Positions 1,105 to 63,357 of a stretch of DNA of 64,000 nt are shown here, one piece after another. The position numbers and the translations under genes were made by a program. Every line of letters starts with the position of its first letter. Position 1 is the stretch's first letter. Source of the stretch: Dehalococcoidia bacterium (GTDB lineage: Bacteria; Chloroflexota; Dehalococcoidia; Lucifugimonadales; JAAXIE01); the NCBI GenBank assembly GCA_965248385.1, contig CBDFIZ010000002.1, positions 949,904 to 1,013,903 of the forward strand, read 5' to 3'. Below the pieces are notes generated by a model. It saw only the letters and a list, made by a program, of their open reading frames with translations. It was not told where the DNA came from and made no database searches.

Positions 1105-1716
1105 TCAGGAAGGACTTGTAGAATCGGATCGGTTCCTAAGCTCGTTCGTTCGGCGGACATATTGGTCCACGCGAGCTTGGTGCGTGTAGGCAGATTCTAA
1201 AGCGGTTCCGAGATAGTCTAATATGTCTTCTATTTCCTGCGCATCGAACTCATCGACCTCAATGTCGTCATGGCCCGCAACCGAGGCCCATAGACGTAGT
1301 TGGTCGACCCCACCATAGATAGCGGGAGTGATCACCTGCTTTTCGACTAGCTCTTTGAAGTTTTCTACCTGCTTATCGCGCAGAAACCTAATCAATGTTG
1401 TCCGAGCGGCCATCAGGGCTCCGATGTTGGCACCTGCAGCATGAGCCCGACGAGAATCCTCATAAGCCTCTCTGATCTTCTCGGGGACGCTTTTAGGCGC
1501 TCCTGGACTGTCCAACGGCCACACCGCACGCCCACGCTCCACTACGAATGTCCGTTTACATGCTCCACACCGCACGACAGATATGGGGCCACCTTCCAGG
1601 TGATACCACCCGTGTATAGGGTCGGTTAGGTTGCCTGAAAGATACACCAAACCTTCAACAACAATCGGAGTATTGATTGTATAGACACTACAAATGGGGC
1701 ATTTAACGCTATCCAT
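1105..1716 (-). CDS. DUF4145 domain protein with N-terminal zinc-ribbon
   Basis: N-terminal CPIC...CGAC cysteine pairs; C-terminal ...AAGANIGALMAARTTLIRFLRDK... and LRLWASVAGHD resembling the DUF4145 R..G(N)..AH signature. Confidence 0.6.
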   Translation of the reverse strand: MDSVKCPICSVYTINTPIVVEGLVYLSGNLTDPIHGWYHLEGGPISVVRCGACKRTFVVERGRAVWPLDSPGAPKSVPEKIREAYEDSRRAHAAGANIGALMAARTTLIRFLRDKQVENFKELVEKQVITPAIYGGVDQLRLWASVAGHDDIEVDEFDAQEIEDILDYLGTALESAYTHQARVDQYVRRTNELRNRSDSTSPS

Positions 1717-9556: not shown

Positions 9557-9584
9557 AGTCTACGTAGCTATGTAAAGTTGTCAA
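9557..9584 (-). promoter_or_regulatory. sigma70-like promoter of the DUF5679 gene
   Basis: Minus strand TTGACA (9579-9584), 16-nt spacer, TAGACT (9557-9562); the spacer contains ATAGCTACGTAG. Confidence 0.4.
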
Positions 9585-9637
9585 GGCGATGCAAGGGTCA
9601 AATTACCATAACTTCCAGTTGTGGTTCTGACTCGTAG

Positions 9638-10585
9638 CTAGGAACTGCTGCCTACAGGGCAATAGGGCGATACGGTGTCCAACTGGAACACCAAGGATGG
9701 TGTCCACAAGTTCTCAGGCTTGTTGTAGCGCAGCACTCCCAGGAAACGACCGTCGCTGGTATAAGCGCGGTACCGCTCCATGTATCCCGCGTAGGCAAGG
9801 GTTGGCCCCAAGTTAACGTCCCTGCCGTGGCGTATGAGCCTCTCCGCTGCTCGGGGGACTATGGTGCTCTTTGAGTCCAACAATGCGTAATCCACAGGCA
9901 GTAGGTGCTGCTCCCACCCCGATTCTTCCAGCTCCTCGAGGGCGATTCCCTCTTCTACCTTGAACTGGCCGGAGCGGGTGCGCACCAGTTCCGATAGGTA
10001 CCCGCCACAGCCGAGGCTCTGACCTAAGTCGTGGGCCAGCGACCGCATGTAAACACCTCGTCCGCACCCCACTTGTAGGCTGACGTTGGGAGGCGAGAAG
10101 TCCAGCAGTTCGATGCTGTGGACCTCCACGCGACGAGGCTCTCGTTCGACCTCCACCCCAGCGCGGGCCAGCTCGTACAGCCGCTTGCCGTGATGTTTCA
10201 GGGCGCTGTACATGGGGGGCGTCTGCATGATTACACCACAGAAAGGCTGCACGGCCTGCTCTACGTCGTCCCGAGTCACGCCTTGCCAATCTTGCGTCGC
10301 CAGCACCTCTCCCTCGGAGTCGTAGGTGGATGTGGTGGTGCCTAGGGTTACCTTCATGTAGTAGCCTTTGACGCCGTCAATCAGGTGCTCCATGAGCCGT
10401 GTAGCTTGGCCGAAGCAGATGGCGAGCACTCCTTCGGCCTGAGGGTCCAGGGTGCCGCCGTGGCCCACGCCCTTCTTCTGGTCCGTAAGCCGCTTCACCC
10501 GGCGTACTACGTCCATGGAGGTGCCGCCACGGGCCTTGTTGATGTTGATGAACCCGTTTATTCGTGTGGGGCGCGCGGCAGTCAT
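9638..10585 (-). CDS. truB: tRNA pseudouridine(55) synthase TruB
   Basis: GFININKARGGTSMDVV...GHGGTLDP catalytic Asp motif and a C-terminal PUA-like region. Start trimmed to the ATG at 10585; the longer ORF overlaps rbfA. Confidence 0.92.
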   Translation of the reverse strand: MTAARPTRINGFININKARGGTSMDVVRRVKRLTDQKKGVGHGGTLDPQAEGVLAICFGQATRLMEHLIDGVKGYYMKVTLGTTTSTYDSEGEVLATQDWQGVTRDDVEQAVQPFCGVIMQTPPMYSALKHHGKRLYELARAGVEVEREPRRVEVHSIELLDFSPPNVSLQVGCGRGVYMRSLAHDLGQSLGCGGYLSELVRTRSGQFKVEEGIALEELEESGWEQHLLPVDYALLDSKSTIVPRAAERLIRHGRDVNLGPTLAYAGYMERYRAYTSDGRFLGVLRYNKPENLWTPSLVFQLDTVSPYCPVGSSS

Positions 10586-19742: not shown

Positions 19743-19893
19743 CGTCATTCTTGTGCAATAGCCGCCTGTACCCAGACATCGTCCACCCCTCGTCATTCCC
19801 ACGTAGGCCGGAACCCACGGCCCGCACCGCCTCGGCAAGCCGCTCTCCCGTAAACCGCCCCCGTCATTCCCGCGCAGGCGGGAACCCACGGCC
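19743..19893 (+). repeat. three REP-like palindromic repeats (CGTCATTCCC-N8-GGGAACCCACGGCC type)
   Basis: Copies at 19791-19822 and 19862-19893 are near-identical, with inverted repeat TTCCCGC/GCGGGAA. A degenerate copy lies at 19743-19766. Confidence 0.7.
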
Positions 19894-19949
19894 CACACCA
19901 ACTCTGCAGACCTTAACCACCGCCATACGAAACCCCTGACTGATGGCAC

Positions 19950-20545
19950 TGATACTCGCCCGTTGACAGCGGCCACCCCTCCCCGCTGACCTCAATGCAG
20001 GCAGGGGACTGACCCCTCAGGGGCGCCCCTGCCTTTCTTATTTCAGATCCCTCGAATCAGCGGAATGAGAATGAGCGCGAACGATGGAAATAATGGAATC
20101 TCCCTCCCTCTCTGGAAGGATCCCAGTCCGCTGAAATGCGGTGCAATGCGGCAAGCTGAATCAGGTAGGGCAACGGCAAATGCGGCGTACTACAGATACA
20201 AGAAATTCCCCTCAGCTACGGCCGTTGCCGCATCCCAACTACGCCAGCGACAACACCGGCATCGCACCTCAGCTACGACTCATCCCTTTTGGGCGAGGCA
20301 CTGCCACTGCTGGGAAGCACCGCGTGTCACAGTCTGACCGTATCTAACTAGCTACGAACATGTCACAAATGTCATAGGTCTCAGATAGAATAAACCTGAT
20401 TTTAGCTACGACCAGTGTGACATCCCCAGCTACGGAACGGTCCCAAACTGGAGTTTTGGGCATGCATCATATCCTCACCTCTTCTTGCGCCGCCAGCGGC
20501 AGGCCTACGCAACGGCAGTAGCATCTCCCGCCTTGTGCTACCATT
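19950..20545 (+). ncRNA. structured noncoding locus A of the YYY-AGCTACG family (candidate novel RNA or leader)
   Basis: Promoter box TGATA-N8-TTGACA; 5' hairpin 20000-20033; AGCTACG at 20214, 20271, 20350, 20404 and 20428; two CAGATA-N15-AGCTACG cores with complementary flanks; no frame-conserved ORF. Confidence 0.5.
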
Positions 20546-29379: not shown

Positions 29380-30096
29380 GTGGAAGTCATACCTGCCATC
29401 GACCTGCGCGGGGGCCGTTGCGTTCGCCTCTTCCAAGGCGACTACGCGCAAGAGACGGTCTTCTCCCATGACCCAGCCGAGGTGGCCCGCCGCTGGGAGA
29501 CTGCCGGAGCACCCCGCATCCATGTGGTAGACCTCGACGGGGCGCGCACTGGCCAGCAGGCCAACCGGGAGGCCATCGCCAGCATCGTGGCCGCCGTAAG
29601 CATCCCTCTTCAGGTTGGAGGTGGCGTCCGCACTATCGATGATGCCGAAGGGCTGGCATTTCTGGGTGTCGACCGGTTCGTGTTAGGCACAGCGGCCGTG
29701 CGCGACCCGGACTTGGTGGCCCGTCTCTGTCAGCAGTTCGGCGGCCAGCGCATCGTGGTCGCCGTCGACGCTCGCAACGGTCAAGTGGCCATTCAGGGTT
29801 GGCGGGAAGACACCAGCGTTACGGCCTCCGACTTGGTGAGCGAGATGACCGCTCTGGGCGTACCCCGCTTTCTCTACACCGACATATCCCGCGACGGCAC
29901 CCTCAGCCAGCCCAATTTCGACGCCCTCGCCCAACTGGTCAACAGCACCGCCAGCGCCATCCTGGCCTCCGGCGGCGTCTCACAGTTGGAACACCTGACA
30001 CGCCTGTCGGAGCTTGGCGCAGAAGGGGCCATACTAGGCCGAGCCCTGTATACCGGCGACATCGACTTGGCCCAAGCCATTCAAACGACGCGATAG
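29380..30096 (+). CDS. hisA: HisA (ProFAR isomerase)
   Basis: GTG start just after the hisH stop; VIPAIDLRGGRCVRLFQGDY; GG...SGGV motifs. Confidence 0.92.
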   Translation: MEVIPAIDLRGGRCVRLFQGDYAQETVFSHDPAEVARRWETAGAPRIHVVDLDGARTGQQANREAIASIVAAVSIPLQVGGGVRTIDDAEGLAFLGVDRFVLGTAAVRDPDLVARLCQQFGGQRIVVAVDARNGQVAIQGWREDTSVTASDLVSEMTALGVPRFLYTDISRDGTLSQPNFDALAQLVNSTASAILASGGVSQLEHLTRLSELGAEGAILGRALYTGDIDLAQAIQTTR

Positions 30097-30352
30097 TTGC
30101 TTGCGCTGGCGGAGTTAACTAGACGTCCGATCAACCGTCAGGACAGGGCTACTCCCCCAATCGCGAACGGCTACGCGGTGGAGTTGGGCCGCCAGAAGAC
30201 AATGGCGACGCTGGCGGTGAAGCCGGGGAGAATGGGCGAGCCTAGGGTGTGGAGGCCGTAGTTGGCGACCTCGTTCAAAGCGTCATCGTTGTGGGCCAGT
30301 ACCCGAACCACCCCCACGGGGAGCGTGCTTCTCCCCCTGAAGCCAATCCCTC

Positions 30353-31095
30353 TGACATCAGCCCGTTGACACGGCTGTCCTTCCCCACCTAGGCTCGACA
30401 TATGGCTCCAAAAACGCAATCAGCGAAAACACCCGTAGCAGGGCCGCCAGCAACGGGTGTCGGAAAACCCCTTGCCAATACCCCTTGTAACAACACGCCA
30501 CCGGGCAGACCCACGTGTAGCGGCCACGCCAACCTGCTACCTGCGTGGCCTCTCAATGGTACGTGTGTGTCCCATAAAAGCCCGTTATTTCGTAGCTGGA
30601 TTTACCCAAATGAGACAAATGAGACACATTACAGATACGGAGAATGCGTTTTTAGCTACGACCAGTGTCTCATCTGTACCCTTTCCAGATACGATTCTGG
30701 CCATGTCACTGAGACCAAAACGGTACACCATGTCTCACCCCATACACAGCCTTCCATACCCATGTCGGGCCAAGCGGACCGGATACAACGACGTCACAAA
30801 TGCACAGGCATCAGCTACGAAAACGTGAATTCGTGTGTCAACCCCTTGACTAAAGCAAAGCTGACGCATCGCTGCGCCGGTCCAAATCCCGGTACAATAA
30901 AATGCATACAATTTATGACGGATATAGCATTGGAAGTTAACGAGAGATGCAAAAGACTAGCATTGGAACACCACAAACACCACAAAATGCGAACGTCCAA
31001 GGCCAGTAATGCCGGTTGTCATGCCAAGACCTCCGGCAAAGCAGCAACGGACTCGTGAGAGGGCTAGAGCCTGCCCCGGACCCGGTCCGGGGGGT
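30353..31095 (+). ncRNA. structured noncoding locus B of the YYY-AGCTACG family
   Basis: Promoter box TGACA-N8-TTGACA-N18-TAGGCT; TCGTAGCT (30590) pairs with AGCTACGA (30654); ATGAGACA x2 (30610, 30619) with complements at 30666 and 30731; lower-GC 3' half with further tandem word duplications. Confidence 0.5.
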
Positions 31096-31340
31096 GACGG
31101 TGATTCACGGCGCTTTAACCATGCCACATACAACATTCGAAAGACCCTGGCCATTGCCCGCACTCTGTGGCCATCGGGGTCCACGACCCAGTACTCTTGA
31201 ATGTTGTGCCGGGGTATAGGTTCAGCTTGATTCGCCGGTCACGACTGGCCGTAGACGGCGACACCACCACACCGGTTTGCGCGTCCCAAGCTGCTGTTGT
31301 ACATTGAATCGTCAAATCATCACGCTGGTGGCGCAGGGAT

Positions 31341-31919
31341 ATGGTCGAGCACGCAGAACATAACGCAGACAGGGCAGCTAGGTGGCTCTCGCCCGACAGG
31401 GAGCTGGAGCTGGACCCGTTCAACGTGATAAATTACATGCCCATAGATCCCTACGACCGCGTGGCCGACATCGGCTGCGGTCCCGGCTATTTCACCATCC
31501 CCCTAGCCAAATACCTCGTCCACGGATTCCTTCATGCCTTGGATACTGACGAGGAGATGGTGGAGGTGACCCGTCGTCGCGTGGAAGCGTCGCGGCTGGG
31601 CCATGTGCAGGTGCAGGCCTGCCAGCCGACTGAGTTCCCCATTGAGGCGGGCTCACTTGATGGCGTTTTCCTGTCGCTGGTCGTGCATCATCATGGCTTG
31701 GACCGCGAAGCCTTCTTGAAGGCGGTCCGCGAGTTGCTGCGGCCCCGGGGCTGGTGCATCGTCTTGGAATGGCATGGCGAAGGCGGGCAGGACTCTCACT
31801 CTCACGACCACCGCATCGAGCCCGACGACCTACGCGGTCTGGCGCAGCGCTCAGGTTTCCGCTTCCAAAGTTGGCGCAAACTCAATGACGCTCAGTACAT
31901 GGCTACCCTCAGGAAATAG
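31341..31919 (+). CDS. class I SAM-dependent methyltransferase
   Basis: [16 protein letters not shown] motif I; 192 aa. Confidence 0.85.
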
Positions 31920-31921
31920 CC

Positions 31922-32767
31922 GTGCTAACCAAGCGAATCATCCCTTGCTTGGATGTGGACGCGGGCCGTGTGGTGAAGGGTGTCAGCTTCGTTGACCTCA
32001 TTGACGCGGGCGATCCGGCTGAACTCGCCTCACTCTATGACCGCGAGGGGGCCGACGAGCTGGTGTTCCTCGACATCACCGCCAGTTCCGACCAACGGGA
32101 CACTATGGTGGATGTGGTCCACCGAGTGTCGGACCAAGTCTTCATCCCCCTAACCGTTGGTGGCGGCATCCGGACCATCCAAGACGTGCGACGCATGCTC
32201 CGGGCAGGGGCTGACAAGGTCTCGCTGAACACGGCCGCAGTGAACAACCCAAGCTTGGTGGCCGAGGGCGCCGCCAACTTCGGCAGCCAGTGCATCGTAG
32301 TTGCCATTGACGCTCGAAGCACCCAAGGGACCGACTCGTCCAACCGCCCCCATCCCGGCCTTCCCCCTTCCACGGGAAACGGACGACCCGATGGAGACCT
32401 AGCCGTCGACGAGCATACCCGCTGGGAGGTCTTCACCCACGGCGGTCGGACTCCCACTGGCATCGACGCCCTCAAGTGGGCGCGACGCGTGGTGGAGTTG
32501 GGGTCGGGGGAGTTGTTGCTCACCAGCATGGACAACGACGGCCACCAAGAGGGTTACGACCTAGAACTGATCCGGGCCATATCTGAGACCGTCCCTGTGC
32601 CCGTCATCGCCAGTGGCGGCGCGGGCAACCTAGACCACTTGGTCGATGCCCTGCTGCAGGGCAAGGCCGATGCCGTACTGGCCGCCAGCATCTTCCACTT
32701 CGGCACGTTTTCCATCGGCCAAGCCAAGGAGCACTTGGCATCTCGCAGCATACCGGTCCGTCTGTGA
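31922..32767 (+). CDS. hisF: imidazole glycerol phosphate synthase cyclase subunit HisF (with about 33-aa insertion)
   Basis: GTG start; [30 protein letters not shown]. Confidence 0.93.
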
Positions 32768-36059: not shown

Positions 36060-36943
36060 AGGACCACCGCTAGGGTGGTGAATAGCAACAGGGTCAGTGA
36101 CACGATGGCATTGAGCTTGAAAGCCTTGGAGATCCTAGTCAGGTCGTTGGATCGCACCATTGTGTGCTGGAAAGCGACTATAGCCACTGCCAAGCCCCAA
36201 CCGATGAAGTAGAAGTATGACAGCCCCATCCAGAGGCCCACAGCTAGGAGGCATGAGAGGGTGAGCACATGAGAGAAGCGTGCCCACAAGATCGCTCCGG
36301 GTATGCCGATCTTCCGGGCGATGGATTGGACCCCATATCCCTTGTCGAAGTCATAGTCCAGCGTACCGTAGAAGACGTCGAACCCTCCAACCCAGAATGT
36401 GACAGCAAAGGCCAATAGTATCGCTTCAGGGTCCAAGCTGCCAGTTACGCCAATCCACGCGCCCGCAGGGGCCAGTCCATCGGCAAAACCCAAGGCGTAG
36501 TGGGCTGCCCAAGAGTGATACTTGACGTAAGAATAGCCCACCACAATCACCGCCGCCACGGGAGCTAGGGCAAAAGCCAAGGTGTTCAACTGGGACGCCC
36601 CGTAGAAGAACACCCCCAGCGAGACCAGCATCACGATCCGCATGTCCCAAGGGGTGAGCGTGCCTTGAGGCAGGTGCCTGCCCCTAGTGCGAGGGTTGGC
36701 GATGTCTTCCTTGTGGTGAATCAGCCGGTTGGCCGACATAGCCAGGGTTCGTGCCCCCGTCATGGCCACGTTGATCCACAAAAACTGCTGCCACGTAGGC
36801 CAACCGTCCGCGGCTAACAGCATGCCGATGTAGCCGATGGGCAGCGCGAACATGCTCTCCTCGAACCGTACCGCTGCCAGCAGCAGATTCACCTTCGAGG
36901 GCAGGGCCAGCAACCCCGCTCGCTGCGGCCGGGCTGTGGTCAT
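36056..36943 (-). CDS. ubiA: UbiA family aromatic prenyltransferase
   Basis: Eight to nine TM helices; N..I...EDIANPRTRGRHLPQG Asp-rich-like motif; overlaps the ubiX start by 4 nt. Confidence 0.85.
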   Translation of the reverse strand: MTTARPQRAGLLALPSKVNLLLAAVRFEESMFALPIGYIGMLLAADGWPTWQQFLWINVAMTGARTLAMSANRLIHHKEDIANPRTRGRHLPQGTLTPWDMRIVMLVSLGVFFYGASQLNTLAFALAPVAAVIVVGYSYVKYHSWAAHYALGFADGLAPAGAWIGVTGSLDPEAILLAFAVTFWVGGFDVFYGTLDYDFDKGYGVQSIARKIGIPGAILWARFSHVLTLSCLLAVGLWMGLSYFYFIGWGLAVAIVAFQHTMVRSNDLTRISKAFKLNAIVSLTLLLFTTLAVVL

Positions 36944-37353
36944 AGCTCATCGTCCCTAGACGGTGTCCTATCGGCATCGATGGCATCGCACAGGTGTCGC
37001 AAGGCCGGCAGGTAGTCGGGCAGCCGGCCGTACACTTGCTCCGCCAACTCTTCGTTGTAAGTGTGGACACTAAGGTTACGGTCTTGGGACATCCGGGCCC
37101 ACAGTCTGTCATCAGCCAAAAGGCCATAGGAGAAAGCCTGGGTGAAACAGTCTCGTGGAGAGCGGCATACAAGGCTCTGCTTCCGCAGGTGGTCCTGAAT
37201 GACCTTCCACGATAGCTCAAAGCACAACTCGAACCTTTTGATGCTCGAGTCCCTCGCCATACCACTCTGGGGTTCCGCTAGCGATTCCTCAAAGCGCGCG
37301 ATGGCTTGCTGAAAGTCGACGAAGCGGCGGTCATCTTGCATATAGCAAGTCAC
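36940..37353 (-). CDS. HI0074-family nucleotidyltransferase substrate-binding protein (HEPN toxin-like)
   Basis: RDSSIKRFELCFELSWKVIQDHL...QDRNLSVHTYNEELA (R-X4-H HEPN motif RNLSVH). Confidence 0.85.
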   Translation of the reverse strand: MTCYMQDDRRFVDFQQAIARFEESLAEPQSGMARDSSIKRFELCFELSWKVIQDHLRKQSLVCRSPRDCFTQAFSYGLLADDRLWARMSQDRNLSVHTYNEELAEQVYGRLPDYLPALRHLCDAIDADRTPSRDDEL

Positions 37354-37660
37354 CGCATGCCAGGATGGCCTCGCGGAACCCGTCGTCTACTGTGTGCATG
37401 TCCACTAAGTCGATCTTACGTAGGGTCAGTAGGTCGCCTACCTCTAGCGCCATGCCGGTGTATACACCGAACTCCAGGAGTGAGCCAGTGTCGAAGGCTA
37501 TATCGAGGTCCGACACATTTAACGCCTTACCCTGAGCCCAAGAGCCAAAGAGGTAGACGCAGAGCGGCCCCTCCGGCACATGGCGTCGGATGACATCCAC
37601 CACCTCTTCCACTAGGGGCTGCACGTCGCTGCGGACACCGGGAACGATGTTCCGGTTCAC
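37331..37660 (-). CDS. MNT nucleotidyltransferase (antitoxin-like) partner of the HEPN protein
   Basis: VYLFGSWAQGKALNVSDLDIAFD. The GTG start overlaps the ubiD TGA stop (GTGA). The 3' end overlaps the HEPN gene. Confidence 0.8.
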   Translation of the reverse strand: MNRNIVPGVRSDVQPLVEEVVDVIRRHVPEGPLCVYLFGSWAQGKALNVSDLDIAFDTGSLLEFGVYTGMALEVGDLLTLRKIDLVDMHTVDDGFREAILACGDLLYAR

Positions 37661-39111
37661 AGCCCGTATTCCTGCCACTTGCGGTCCACCAGTTCCTTGA
37701 TGGCTTGGTCCATCTCGATGTCTGGGGGCCATTCGCGTTGGCGGCCCTCGCCTGCGATTTTGTTGGTGGCGTCGATGCCGATCTTGCCGCCGAACTTGGG
37801 CATGAGGGAGGCGTGGTCGAGGTCGTCAATGGGACCGCTGCTGAGGACGAAGTCTTGGGAGGGGTCGATGTTATTTGTGACTCGCCAAGCCACTTCGGAT
37901 ACGTTGTGGACATTCACATTGTGGTCGACCACGATGATGCACTTCACTAAGGACATGAGACCCATGCCCCACAGGCCGTGCATCACCTTGCGGGCCTGTC
38001 CGGGATATTCCTTCTTGATGGAGACGATGACTAGGTTGTGGAAGCCGCCCTCTGCGGGCATGTTCATGTCAACCACTTCGGGCAGCAGAGTGCGTACCAC
38101 CGGCATAAACACCCGCTCGGTCACCTTGCCCATCCAATAGTCCTCCATAGGTGGGCGGCCTACTATCGTCGCAGGGTAGATGGGGTCGCGGCGACGGGTG
38201 ATGCAGGTTGCGTGGAATACGGGGTAGGTGTCGGGCATGGAGTAGTAGCCGGTATGGTCGCCGAAGGGTCCTTCCATCCGCTCGTCTCCGGGAGTCACGT
38301 AGCCTTCGATGACGATCTCAGCTTGGGCGGGTACCTCCAAGTCGACGGTCTTGGCTTTTACCAGCTCTACGCCTTCCTCGCGTATGAAGCCGGCCACCGC
38401 CATCTCATCCATGTCGGGGGGCACGGGGGCGCAGCCGGTCCAGATGGTGGCCGGGTCCCCGCCTAGGACCACCGCCACCTCGACCCGGTCCTGCCCCTTC
38501 TCACCGCCTACTCGGTAATGGTGGGCCCCTACCTTGTGAGTTTGCCAGTGCATGGCAGCGGTGCGCTTGTCGTACACCTGGATGCGATACATGCCAGCGT
38601 TCCGCACCCCGGTGTTAGGGTCGCGGGTGATGACCAAGGGCAGGGTGATGTAGCGGCCTCCATCCATAGGCCAGCACTTGAGGATGGGGAGGCTGAACAG
38701 GTCGACGTCATCTTCGGTCTGTACCACTTCCTGGCATGGGGCGTGGCTCACCACTTTGGGCTGGTACGAGGCAAGGCGGGCCAACTGGCCCAAGGCCCGC
38801 ATCTTGTCCACGATGCCCTTGGGAGGCTGCTGGGCCATGGACATAAGCTGCTCCAAGCGGCCCACCAAGTCATCAAGATGTTCGACTCCCAAAGCCCATG
38901 CCATGCGCTGCTCAGTGCCATACATATTGATGAGGAGGGGTATGTCGTACCCCTCGACGTTCTCAAAAAGCAGGGCAGGGCCGTTCGACTTCACCATCCG
39001 GTCGGCGATCTCGGTGATCTCCAGCTCCCAGCTTACCGGAGCGGTGATGCGCTTCAGGTCGCCCCTACTTTCAAGGAAGGCGATGAAATCGCGGAGGTCC
39101 CTATACTTCAT
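37657..39111 (-). CDS. ubiD: UbiD family decarboxylase
   Basis: MKYRDLRDFIAFLESRGDLKRI N-terminus; 484 aa. Confidence 0.93.
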   Translation of the reverse strand: MKYRDLRDFIAFLESRGDLKRITAPVSWELEITEIADRMVKSNGPALLFENVEGYDIPLLINMYGTEQRMAWALGVEHLDDLVGRLEQLMSMAQQPPKGIVDKMRALGQLARLASYQPKVVSHAPCQEVVQTEDDVDLFSLPILKCWPMDGGRYITLPLVITRDPNTGVRNAGMYRIQVYDKRTAAMHWQTHKVGAHHYRVGGEKGQDRVEVAVVLGGDPATIWTGCAPVPPDMDEMAVAGFIREEGVELVKAKTVDLEVPAQAEIVIEGYVTPGDERMEGPFGDHTGYYSMPDTYPVFHATCITRRRDPIYPATIVGRPPMEDYWMGKVTERVFMPVVRTLLPEVVDMNMPAEGGFHNLVIVSIKKEYPGQARKVMHGLWGMGLMSLVKCIIVVDHNVNVHNVSEVAWRVTNNIDPSQDFVLSSGPIDDLDHASLMPKFGGKIGIDATNKIAGEGRQREWPPDIEMDQAIKELVDRKWQEYGL

Positions 39112-40731: not shown

Positions 40732-41230
40732 TGACACCGGCCCGTTGACAGCTACGCCCTATCCGCTCTAGTGTTGATGCAGGCAGGGGATCGACCTTCA
40801 AGGTCGCCCCCCTGCCCTTTCCATTCGGCCCCATTTCGAAAGGAACGCAGTGCGCGACGGGAACGCGAACAAGCTGGCAAAGCTGACTCACATACGACAG
40901 CGCGAGAAATGCGAGACGCTGCAGATACAAAAAAGTTCGTTCCAGCTACGACCGGTCTCGTCTCTCAGCTACAAACCGCAATGTTCTCGCCAAGCCACGC
41001 CGCCACGGGAGCCTCATGGACGCACCGTGCCAAAGCTGTCTCAGTTGAAGAGACCGCAGGAATTGCAGTGCATTCAGCTTCAAACAATTGCGCTGCAGAC
41101 ACGAATGGACTGCAATTCTCCAACGATCTTGAGCCGCTACCCGTAAGTCTGGGCGGGAGCCGCGGGAGCCCTCGGCGTATACACGGCCTTATTGACTGGA
41201 AGTAGCCAAAAGTTGTACCTTGATAGCTGG
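40732..41230 (+). ncRNA. structured noncoding locus C of the YYY-AGCTACG family
   Basis: Promoter box TGACA-N8-TTGACA-N18-TAGTGT; 5' hairpin 40782-40816; nested stems GCGAGAA/TTCTCGC and CGAGAC/GTCTCG around CAGATAC-N15-AGCTACGACC; long-range stem 41059-41068/41110-41118. Confidence 0.5.
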
Positions 41231-58799: not shown

Positions 58800-59329
58800 A
58801 ACTCGTCACTGTCACAGACTGGCCTCATTTAGATGGCTGTCTCCAGACCTGCCCGTGGATTGAGGGACGCATTTGCACGCAGGTGTGCACGCATGGTGGC
58901 GCCCCGTAGCTGAGGTGAGGCGATGGGCGTGCATGCTGCCTAGCTGGGGTTGCACGGCGTTTGTAGCTGCGGCGAATTTTTTCGTAGCTAATCCCCCTGC
59001 AATCCCTGCAATTGGGTCCTTTGGTGCAGCTAGCGACCAGCTACGACTTTGGATGTGCATCGGCACTGCATGGTGGGGACGGGCGTGGCAGCGGCGGATG
59101 TTGGATTCTCGTGGCGATGCCGTAGCTGCGGTGGGCTGAGGAGGGGCCTGCACCGATTGTTGTCCTTCAGATGGTTGCAGTTTTTGCACGAGGCGTCCTT
59201 CTCAAGTCGAGTTATGGCCGAAGTTGAATCGTAGGGCCAAATGGAAAGCCGGTGCCACCTCGATGGGTTCGTCCCCGGCCTATGGTCATACTAGCCGAAT
59301 GAGTGTTGGGAGACAATGGCCGATTGTCA
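58800..59329 (-). ncRNA. structured noncoding locus D of the YYY-AGCTACG family (minus strand, upstream of sodN)
   Basis: Minus-strand promoter box TGACA-N8-TTGTCT-N17-TAGTAT (59288-59329). Six AGCTAC(G/A)/AGCTAGG copies. Adjacent tandem ATTGCAGGG x2 (58995-59012). TGCGTGCA x2 with a complement flanking AGCTACG (58874-58934). Confidence 0.5.
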
Positions 59330-62838: not shown

Positions 62839-63357
62839 TGACATTAGCCCGTTGACGGGGACTGCTGTTCCCCTCTAGCCTTCGTACAGACCCGTCCCGT
62901 TCACGACTGGTCCCTCTCTTGGTAGACCACTTCTTGAGGTGCCAAAACATGCGGACCCCTCGCAAGGACAGTCCCGTGGCTGTTCACTACGCACGCGTAC
63001 ACACTCGCCGCTCCAGTGGTCCAGCCCGATGCCATAAAATGTGGCATAGAAATCCCTTAATTTCGTAGTTGAATTGATTACGAATGCTACAGATGCTACA
63101 TAACGCAGATACGGTAAAACGCATTTTAGCTACGAGGCGTCTGGCATGTGAACAAGCCACAGCTACGATTCGTAGCAACCATGGGATAGATGAGACCGAA
63201 ACCAGATAAAAAACTCGCGTCAGCTACAACTACTGTCCCATCCGAAGCTGCAAGGACGGTCGTGATGCAAGGATCTCCCTCCGGAGGGATAACGGTCGGC
63301 TGTCCCCCAGAAGATCCCCTTGATATACTTTCTTGTAGCTACAGCGAGGCACAGCGT
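62839..63357 (+). ncRNA. structured noncoding locus E of the YYY-AGCTACG family (upstream of gatB)
   Basis: Promoter box TGACA-N8-TTGACG-N18-TAGCCT. TCGTAGTT (63063) pairs with AGCTACGA (63128). ATGCTACA x2 (63084, 63093). CAGATAC-N15-AGCTACG. GCTACGA-TT-CGTAGC hairpin (63162-63176). The last AGCTACA lies 8 nt before the gatB SD. Confidence 0.5.

Follow-up and report, generated by a model that had tools for sequence, protein, structure and literature searches.

The BOX elements of pneumococci and the BIMEs of enterobacteria are modular, hairpin-forming intergenic repeats of ~30-300 nt that are co-transcribed with their neighbours. The Correia elements of Neisseria are ~100-150 bp long, have terminal inverted repeats and a TA duplication, and can carry promoter activity; lying just upstream of genes, they alter the transcription of these. 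The LDR and Sib repeats of Escherichia coli, once thought to be non-coding, are type I toxin-antitoxin loci that specify a small, conserved hydrophobic peptide and an antisense RNA. Here, we analyzed a repeat in a stretch of 64,000 nt from a Dehalococcoidia bacterium (GenBank assembly GCA_965248385.1, contig CBDFIZ010000002.1, positions 949,904 to 1,013,903), which, taken at its full length, we refer to as the window. The repeat lies between hisA and a methyltransferase-hisF gene pair, at a place designated locus B; among bacterial repeats of the known modular intergenic type, it is an unusually large variant. Our preferred interpretation, to which we give an even chance, is that locus B holds a copy of an intergenic repeat, ~800 nt long, modular, promoter-bearing and confined to one lineage, and is not a control element of the his operon.

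Like BOX and BIMEs, the element is dispersed, non-coding, intergenic and lineage-restricted, its copies occupy varied intergenic contexts with shared sharp ends, and its sub-modules vary in number and order (the comparison is by description only). It differs from them in its length of ~800 nt, in having its own promoter at a fixed end and a tandem word that covaries with its complement, and in showing no known sequence similarity to those elements. With the Correia elements it shares the character of a dispersed repeat situated just upstream of genes and equipped with a promoter, which is predicted in our case; however, terminal inverted repeats of the kind expected for Correia-like elements and miniature inverted-repeat transposable elements were not found, as the ends CCCACTGACAT... 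and ...CGAAAGACCCTG are not related by inversion. Some copies are bordered by short direct repeats, namely L088 by GCACCCACC, L087 by GTGCCAC and L090 by CATGGAACTG; these repeats run into the conserved sequence at the 5' start or differ in their distance from the ends, and as target-site duplications they are ambiguous. The LDR and Sib repeats, of a few hundred bp, are also dispersed and non-coding in appearance; in contrast to them, neither strand of any copy of the element contains a conserved small open reading frame (ORF) or a type I toxin. OLE, GOLLD, ROOL, HEARO and raiA are likewise several hundred nt long, without a conserved ORF and lineage-restricted, whereas the element has no Rfam match and displays local hairpins only and near-neutral drift, as opposed to their extensive covariation-supported folds. 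In the Rfam 15 search of the whole window in gathering mode, only three tRNAs passed, and the best permissive-mode scores at locus B were 19.8 and 14.8 bits, versus cut-offs of 34.1 and 37.6. The element had no match in plasmid and phage collections, and nothing relevant was found in the literature on non-coding RNAs of Dehalococcoidia and Chloroflexota. The parts of locus B that carry the argument are as follows:

30348-31149, plus strand: whole B-type element, a ~800-nt non-coding repeat with sharp ends, delimited by the alignment of copies
30366-30395, plus strand: putative sigma-70-type promoter, with the -35 hexamer TTGACA at 30366-30371, an 18-nt spacer and the -10 hexamer TAGGCT at 30390-30395, recognized by conservation among copies
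30402-31058, plus strand: ORF218, a 218-codon open frame over the element, with its ATG at the predicted transcription start
30590-30597, plus strand: 5' arm TCGTAGCT, an inverted copy of the box, complementary to 30654-30661
30610-30627, plus strand: tandem words X1 (30610-30617) and X2 (30619-30627), which covary with X'
30632-30661, plus strand: loop boxes CAGATAC (30632-30638) and TAGCTACGA (30653-30661), conserved in 17 units
30665-30673, plus strand: complement X' (GTGTCTCAT), which covaries with X1 and X2

Within a small set of uncultured Dehalococcoidia, the repeat precedes a variety of unrelated genes. Further copies were obtained by a protein search with ORF218, after which the contigs behind the database matches were fetched (they are designated here by L numbers). 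The alignment of eight more copies, 78-91% identical, starts at 30348-30352 and stops at 31148-31149, and the DNA outside these edges is unrelated. The feature that the initial annotation had placed at 30353-31095 is real, but the conserved element is bigger. The downstream neighbours of the copies are argF (L085), gltA (L086 and L089, which are syntenic), a norB-like gene (L087), a CoA-transferase gene (L088), tig-clpP-clpX (L090) and icd-mdh (L091 and L092). Each of these copies lies 20-240 nt upstream of a co-oriented gene, and co-orientation with the downstream gene holds for all ~13 independent loci of the family. An orthologous copy (L093) occupies the same hisA/methyltransferase-hisF junction, with flanking genes ~96-98% identical to those of the window. 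Because there are copies elsewhere and an orthologue in the same place, we consider the element a dispersed repeat that is stably inherited at the his site.

The copies differ in their module content. A block of 165 nt (30706-30870) is missing from L086 and L089, and L094 is rearranged, with the promoter followed by the middle and 3' domains and then by the core unit. A solo 3' module, consisting of the hairpin and the tail, lies directly upstream of the 5' edge of the element in L085 (3712-3796), L087 (3892-3953) and L091 (3846-3953); these are either terminator-like modules on both sides of the element or remnants of a tandem arrangement. Four copies or variants are on four contigs of one sample: three are B-type elements, at 10-13x coverage, and the fourth is an orthologue of locus C (see below), at 16x coverage. 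Together with the five loci in the 64 kb of the window, this is an indirect hint at many copies within one genome.

At the his site, the gene order is hisH, hisA (stop at 30096), a gap of 1.24 kb, a gene for an S-adenosylmethionine-dependent methyltransferase (31341-31919) and hisF (31922-32767), according to Pfam. The GC content is 0.45-0.53 over 30600-31000, versus 0.58-0.66 in the surroundings, so that the less GC-rich 3' half reported initially is borne out by a drop measured across this interval. The closest HisF among species representatives, from an uncultured Dehalococcoidia, is 76% identical, and an exact look-up of the methyltransferase sequence gave no record. In more distant Dehalococcoidia the genes are tightly packed as hisH-hisA-hisF or hisA-methyltransferase-hisF with gaps of ~100 nt, and the family motif is absent from these his operons; the search of reference genomes with hisF found such "empty" operons only and no extra copies of the element. 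The 1.24-kb spacer is therefore lineage-specific. Since near-identical copies adjoin unrelated genes, the location of the element in the his operon is incidental, and the his-operon framing of the initial annotation is not supported.

The element contains a hairpin unit of ~65 nt whose stem is formed by a variable tandem word and its complement and whose loop holds CAGATAC and AGCTACGA; the same unit, with other words, recurs at four other long leader-like regions of the window. On re-check, all words and coordinates previously given for locus B were correct, including the hisA stop at 30096: TCGTAGCT is at 30590-30597, ATGAGACA at 30610-30617 and 30619-30626, CAGATAC at 30632, AGCTACGA at 30654-30661, TGTCTCAT at 30666-30673, and a second TGTCTCA at 30731-30737. 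Five units of the window are in exact register (word, word, 5 nt, CAGATA, 15-16 nt, AGCTACG, 4-5 nt, complement). A covariance model built on 13 units added two more, 63181-63250 in the window and 9382-9454 in L084, and found none in the fetched more distant Dehalococcoidia or in other phyla. A pattern scan of metagenomes with the fixed-register unit gave three matches, all of them chance occurrences in coding DNA.

Pairing was counted over a set of 17 units. The loop boxes are invariant or nearly so in all 17, with a start-to-start spacing of 21-22 nt. X2 pairs with X' in 88.2% of cells, and 7 of the 9 pairs have changed on both sides; for X1 and X', the corresponding values are 88.2% and 6 of 8. 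Shuffles reach these pairing values in 0-1 of 500 trials, and sliding the partner lowers pairing to 16-48%. This three-way covariation of X1, X2 and X' is the strongest structural result of our analysis, and it backs the word/complement stem of the initial annotation. The double compensatory change that had been noticed relative to unit A3 of locus A is also correct (ATGTCACA/TGTGACAT in that unit versus ATGAGACA/TGTCTCAT in locus B). It should be noted that the L093 orthologue has GTGTCCCAT, with an A.C mismatch where the window has an A-U pair; thus, the perfect stem of the window results from a recent C-to-T compensation.

Two other proposed pairings fared differently. The outer stem TCGTAGCT:AGCTACGA is 96.6% paired; however, no pair has changed on both sides, three mismatches are uncompensated, the stem is absent from 6 of the 17 units, and a competing local hairpin fits the 5' arm TCGTAGCT equally well. 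The idea that the first word could nest with the second TGTCTCA is unsupported: TGTCTCA has a local partner, TGAGAC at 30710-30715, and it has stayed the same in L085, though X1, X2 and X' have all changed there.

The motif AGCTACG occurs 23 times in the window, versus 5.8 expected, and none of 100 shuffles reaches 23. A broader box, YAGMTACRV, of which CAGATACG and CAGCTACG are variants, occurs 34 times, versus 8.9 expected, and it falls into exactly five clusters that coincide with the five family loci (A-E) of the 64-kb window. The assignment of locus B to a repeat family, made from the letters of the window, thus stands, as four other loci carry related units:

19950-20450, plus strand: locus A, between the hydantoinase A and B genes, with units at 20171-20242 and 20360-20432 (register and boxes)
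40732-41000, plus strand: locus C, upstream of a tRNA Thr-Tyr-Thr cluster and tuf, with a unit at 40900-40972 (register and covariance model)
58900-59140, minus strand: locus E, upstream of a Ni-superoxide dismutase gene, with tandem ATTGCAGGG words and boxes (box clusters)
62840-63345, plus strand: locus D, upstream of gatB, with units at 63084-63156 and 63181-63250 (register and covariance model)

Loci A and B both split normally adjacent gene pairs, hyuA/hyuB (hydantoinase A and B) and hisA/hisF, respectively. Locus E has no CAGATAC. A homologue search with the ORF of locus C gave no matches, which argues that locus C is not a conserved dispersed element.

Several further observations concern these loci. 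Within locus B, the middle module contains at 30796-30830, in most copies, a second, truncated tandem-word pair, (AC)GTCACA-A-ATGTCACA, followed by a box; the word is nearly the same as that of unit A3 (locus A, 20360-20380), which suggests an exchange of modules between loci. In loci A (19950-20014) and C (40732-40796), the promoter is followed at the transcript start by a GC hairpin with a T-rich tail (GCAGGCAGGGGA...CCCCTGCC TTTC), a 5' stem-loop or an early terminator module that locus B does not have. Just upstream of the locus A promoter, at 19787-19908, there are two tandem REP-like palindromic repeats (CGTCATTCCCRCGYAGGCSGGAACCCACGGCCC), which share 84% identity and are separated by 71 nt. 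On the minus strand, two TAGCTACG boxes stand by themselves at 9563-9639, flanked by a gene called truB-like by eye and by a gene for a DUF5679 zinc-ribbon protein. The spacer of a promoter-like sequence, TTGACA-N16-TAGACT, includes one of them, a hint that the box may have a role in DNA form, too.

The putative promoter forms the 5' edge of the element. No change in TTGAC or TAGGCT is seen in any of 8 copies, whereas the spacer is invariant at only 5 of 18 positions, and the interval 30348-30395 is 100% identical between the window and the orthologue L093. The -35 context CCCGTTGAC recurs at the start of loci A, C and D and in the promoter of radC, suggesting that this is the ordinary strong promoter form of the organism. 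The ATG of ORF218 lies 7 nt past the -10 hexamer, at the expected transcription start (~30402), and ATGG is invariant in all copies; this position suggests a leaderless AUG.

ORF218 was absent from the initial annotation, and we tested it as the coding alternative. The protein search with ORF218 retrieved 46 predicted "proteins" (clusters) in public databases, which at first resembled a frame-conserved ORF, the very finding that was to count against a non-coding element. However, these "homologues" read the same DNA in shifting frames (PNETNETHYRYGECVFSYD in some, QMRQMRHITDSENAFLATTS in others), tblastn mapping shows two or three frames per match, and over half of the 46 matches do not start at this ATG. 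Compared with the L093 orthologue, ORF218 has a dN/dS ratio of 0.94, and its substitutions are distributed 10:16:12 over the codon positions, whereas the controls hisF, hisA and the methyltransferase gene have dN/dS of 0.08-0.17 and a strong third-position bias. Across all copies, pN/pS is 0.43-1.51 in every frame and segment, indicating no purifying selection. ORF218 has no Pfam match, its GC content at third codon positions (GC3) is 0.51 versus 0.70-0.83 in real genes of the window, and the AlphaFold model has no confident fold (pLDDT 47.9, pTM 0.21). We rejected a conserved protein on these grounds. The non-coding claim of the initial annotation is upheld, and, in view of the lack of a frame, selection, fold or small-ORF signal, conservation of the element is at the nucleotide level. 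Gene callers annotate copies of the element as hypothetical proteins of 150-234 aa (46 clusters), and these annotations are spurious and correctable.

The length of the open frame is nevertheless beyond chance: 218 codons are reached in 2 of 500 dinucleotide shuffles and in 5 of 5000 simple base shuffles. On the sense strand of every copy, one frame is almost free of stops, while the antisense strand is ordinary; long sense ORFs are retained in most copies in spite of frameshifts, and the ORFs survive more often than they would if the changes of each copy were scattered at random. The survival signal is inflated, because the copies were found by a protein search.

The element is 94.2% identical between the window and L093, compared to ~91.5% at four-fold sites of flanking genes, and its drift is close to the neutral rate; invariant runs are mildly longer than expected by chance (p ~0.04). 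Change is locally faster. When 3948-4577 of L086 is compared with 2241-2869 of L089, ~29 of 629 positions of the element differ, while 454 nt of the adjacent spacer are 100% identical, and locus C is 83% identical with large indels, versus 93% at four-fold sites. Such fast local change could result from gene conversion among copies or from chimeric assembly of repeats. A calibration of genome divergence by the DsbH-like genes of L090 and L091 was discarded, because these are 37% identical, probably paralogues, and thus unusable. It should be noted that minus-strand translation of the spacers 31150-31260 and 30171-30347 gives protein-like fragments, which may represent a decayed gene beside the insertion or split by it. 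The fragment at 31150-31260 has a sub-threshold match to Uma2 (DUF820 nuclease; E = 0.03), and we rejected the proposal that the element split a Uma2 gene, which rests on this single match on one side.

The remaining parts of the element are as follows:

30522-30550, plus strand: local hairpin GGCCACGC...GCGTGGCC (alignment columns 176-183 with 197-204)
30685-30700, plus strand: hairpin CCAGA-TACGAT-TCTGG (CCAGATACGATTCTGG), with a second CAGATACGA box (columns 342-345 with 353-356)
30706-30870, plus strand: dispensable middle module, with box CAGCTACGA at 30812-30820, missing in L086 and L089
30710-30737, plus strand: local hairpin TGAGAC...GTCTCA, which contains the second TGTCTCA (single-sequence and alignment folds)
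30871-31055, plus strand: AT-richer 3' domain with the hairpin CCGG-TCCAAATC-CCGG at 30877-30892, present in all copies and L094
31074-31092, plus strand: GC-rich terminal hairpin CCCCGGACC-c-GGTCCGGGG, a palindrome without a U-tract
31093-31149, plus strand: conserved 3' tail, with the boxA-like GCGCTTTAACC at 31110-31120, ending in ...CGAAAGACCCTG (copy alignment)

The hairpin at 30522-30550 sits in the variable 5' domain, between the promoter and the core unit (30590-30673); one of its pairs is G-C in four copies, G-U in two and A-U in one, the last being the compensated state of the window. The best-conserved block of the element, 30843-30866, with the longest invariant runs, is within the dispensable middle module. 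In the 3' domain, the duplications of CACCACAAA at 30969-30986 and of AGCATTGGAA at 30926 and 30959 are present as initially described, that of CACCACAAA being limited to the window and the closest copies, while others read CACCACAAATGGCACAG. The palindrome CCCCGGACC-c-GGTCCGGGG was also placed correctly. Of 7 distinct copies, 5 retain the hairpin that it forms; L091 has a changed version of it, and L086 and L089 have none. The hairpin does not qualify as an intrinsic terminator, as no T-run follows it and the terminator scan does not call it. The boxA consensus for NusB/NusE in gamma-proteobacteria is GYTCTTTAANA (PMC5725501); GCGCTTTAACC matches 8 of its 10 specified positions, although this gamma-proteobacterial consensus may not be that of the present phylum, and positions 3 and 4 differ among copies. 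GCGCTTTAACC could be a Nus-factor antitermination signal or a chance match. A global consensus fold is unsupported, with an unfavourable covariation term and 8 of 156 pairs changed on both sides, and the whole-element fold, in which even promoter DNA and the 3' tail are joined by many G.U pairs, was rejected.

In the mechanism that we propose, the element would have inserted into the hisA/hisF junction, as locus A would have into the hyuA/hyuB junction. Its own promoter, firing at ~30402, would produce an RNA of ~0.7 kb, untranslated or nominally translated, that runs toward the downstream genes; this transcript would avoid polarity, and the insertion would thereby be tolerated within an operon. 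The split gene pairs and the co-orientation at ~13 loci fit a scenario in which an insertion can persist only if it re-establishes, from its own promoter, the transcription of what lies downstream. The duplicated word would allow two equivalent pairing registers, and the hairpin units would show single-stranded YAGMUACGR boxes to a sequence-specific factor, itself hypothetical; most simply, a hairpin unit with invariant single-stranded boxes would be a recognition module for such a factor.

Several observations weigh against this interpretation. The long open frame is unexplained by it. The consensus promoter scan missed the promoter at 30366-30395, because TAGGCT matches TATAAT weakly, and the promoter, the RNA ends and the read-through are all inferred from sequence. 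Several downstream genes have promoter-like sequences of their own after the element; therefore, promoter supply may not be its role. The factor that would bind the boxes is hypothetical. The mismatches in the stem, 6 A.C versus 5 G.U, make the strand test uninformative, and since A.C is as frequent as G.U, plus-strand RNA, antisense RNA and single-stranded DNA (ssDNA) are not distinguishable as the folded species. Finally, with ambiguous target-site duplications and no terminal inverted repeats, no mechanism of mobility is shown.

We considered other explanations in the light of the same evidence. A leader specific to the his operon, that is, an attenuator or riboswitch controlling hisF, would account for the location between hisA and methyltransferase-hisF and for the presence of alternative pairings; however, the same element stands by at least 7 unrelated genes and is lacking in the his operons of other Dehalococcoidia, and there is neither a leader peptide with His codons nor a conserved small ORF, a U-tract terminator on the sense strand or an Rfam match, so that this explanation is effectively refuted by the distribution of copies. 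It is unlikely, but deserves consideration, that the units are a regulatory RNA module of a new kind. Two identical 5' words would compete for a single complement, and the resulting two-register hairpin would expose the invariant boxes CAGAUAC and AGCUACGA to a protein dedicated to binding them; carried on promoter cassettes upstream of housekeeping genes, such modules would form a lineage-wide post-transcriptional regulon, and the B-type element may in addition be read by ribosomes from the leaderless AUG solely to sustain transcription. The loci might also be genes for a trans-acting non-coding RNA that is large and structured or else serves as a sponge for a protein, and the neighbouring gene would then be irrelevant. 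The repeated YAGMUACGR boxes would titrate an RNA-binding protein, in the way that CsrB titrates CsrA. The conserved promoter and the terminal hairpin module, together with a second upstream copy of this module in some cases that would insulate the unit, 4-8 boxes per locus in one orientation, the frequent promoters of downstream genes and the covariation-supported hairpin are all compatible with such RNA genes. Strict co-orientation with the downstream gene is unexpected for a free-standing RNA gene, though, and the global fold lacks covariation support, the drift is near-neutral, the best-conserved block is dispensable and locus C diverges faster than synonymous sites; we see only a small chance for this possibility. 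It is also very unlikely that ORF218 is a real, leaderless, fast-evolving gene, or an ORF whose product counts for less than its translation, which could, for instance, hold ribosomes behind RNA polymerase and so prevent Rho from ending transcription ahead of the downstream gene. The ATG exactly 7 nt after the -10 hexamer with its invariant ATGG, the single nearly stop-free sense frame per copy against an ordinary antisense strand, and the persistence of the ORFs beyond randomly scattered changes would be explained; the dN/dS and pN/pS values, the wandering frames, the lack of a Pfam family and of a confident fold, the GC3 of 0.51, the inflation of the survival signal by ascertainment and the different starts of over half of the 46 matches would not. 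An HUH-type nuclease (Rep, RAYT or IS200-like), or a recombinase encoded elsewhere, could also act on the units as ssDNA, nicking the loop box and moving or rearranging the modules, and we regard this as unlikely. REP sequences contain GTAG, as does the minus-strand box here. The shuffled modules and local hotspots of change would fit such an activity, and since a plus-strand A.C is a G.U on the other strand, the stems would carry no RNA strand signature. The nick site of the pMV158 family is a hairpin-loop 9-mer, TACTACG/AC, beside two short direct repeats (PMC1851628). The hairpin loop box YAGCTACGAC resembles it in sharing CTACGAC with this RepB site and in lying next to two direct repeats, and 7 of 9 bases are shared with the 9-mer TACTACGAC, a match of 7 nt that could be due to chance. 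In contrast to the pMV158 site, the boxes are chromosomal, there are several per element where a single nick site is expected, and one of the direct repeats is itself used for the stem; genes for Rep, HUH proteins or transposases were not found in the window ORFs tested or in the fetched gene tables of the loci, and no plasmid or phage collection gave a match. Alternatively, the boxes might be double-stranded DNA sites for a regulator or nucleoid-type protein, in iteron-like arrays just downstream of strong promoters. The direct-repeat boxes have recurrent spacings of 21-22 and 31-33 bp, near two and three helical turns, TAGCTA is palindromic, a box and the -35 region overlap at locus C, and another box is inside the promoter spacer at 9563-9569. 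However, boxes are just as often 23-25 bp apart, such distances may be simply inherited with the unit, and the covariation between word and complement is left unexplained; we consider this explanation very unlikely.

Two other places in the window are worth recording. On the minus strand at 36940-37732, between ubiD-like and ubiA-like genes, there is a HepT-like/nucleotidyltransferase (MNT) toxin-antitoxin pair, which is found at the same place in the syntenic relative L084, from which the ubiD and ubiA names were taken. An ORF of 203 aa at 1105-1716 (minus strand), with a GC3 of 0.51 and no Pfam match, lies in a locally AT-richer stretch and is possibly a foreign or mobile gene.

If the preferred interpretation of locus B as a dispersed, promoter-bearing repeat is true, an unusually large modular repeat that carries its own promoter resides inside operons (hisA/hisF and hyuA/hyuB) and ahead of such core genes as gltA, icd-mdh, tig-clpPX, argF and the tRNA-tuf cluster in a poorly known uncultured lineage. 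The three-way covarying hairpin with its invariant loop boxes offers a testable handle on the hypothetical nucleic-acid-binding factor, and the element as a whole would illustrate one way in which inserted transcription units rewire gene expression.

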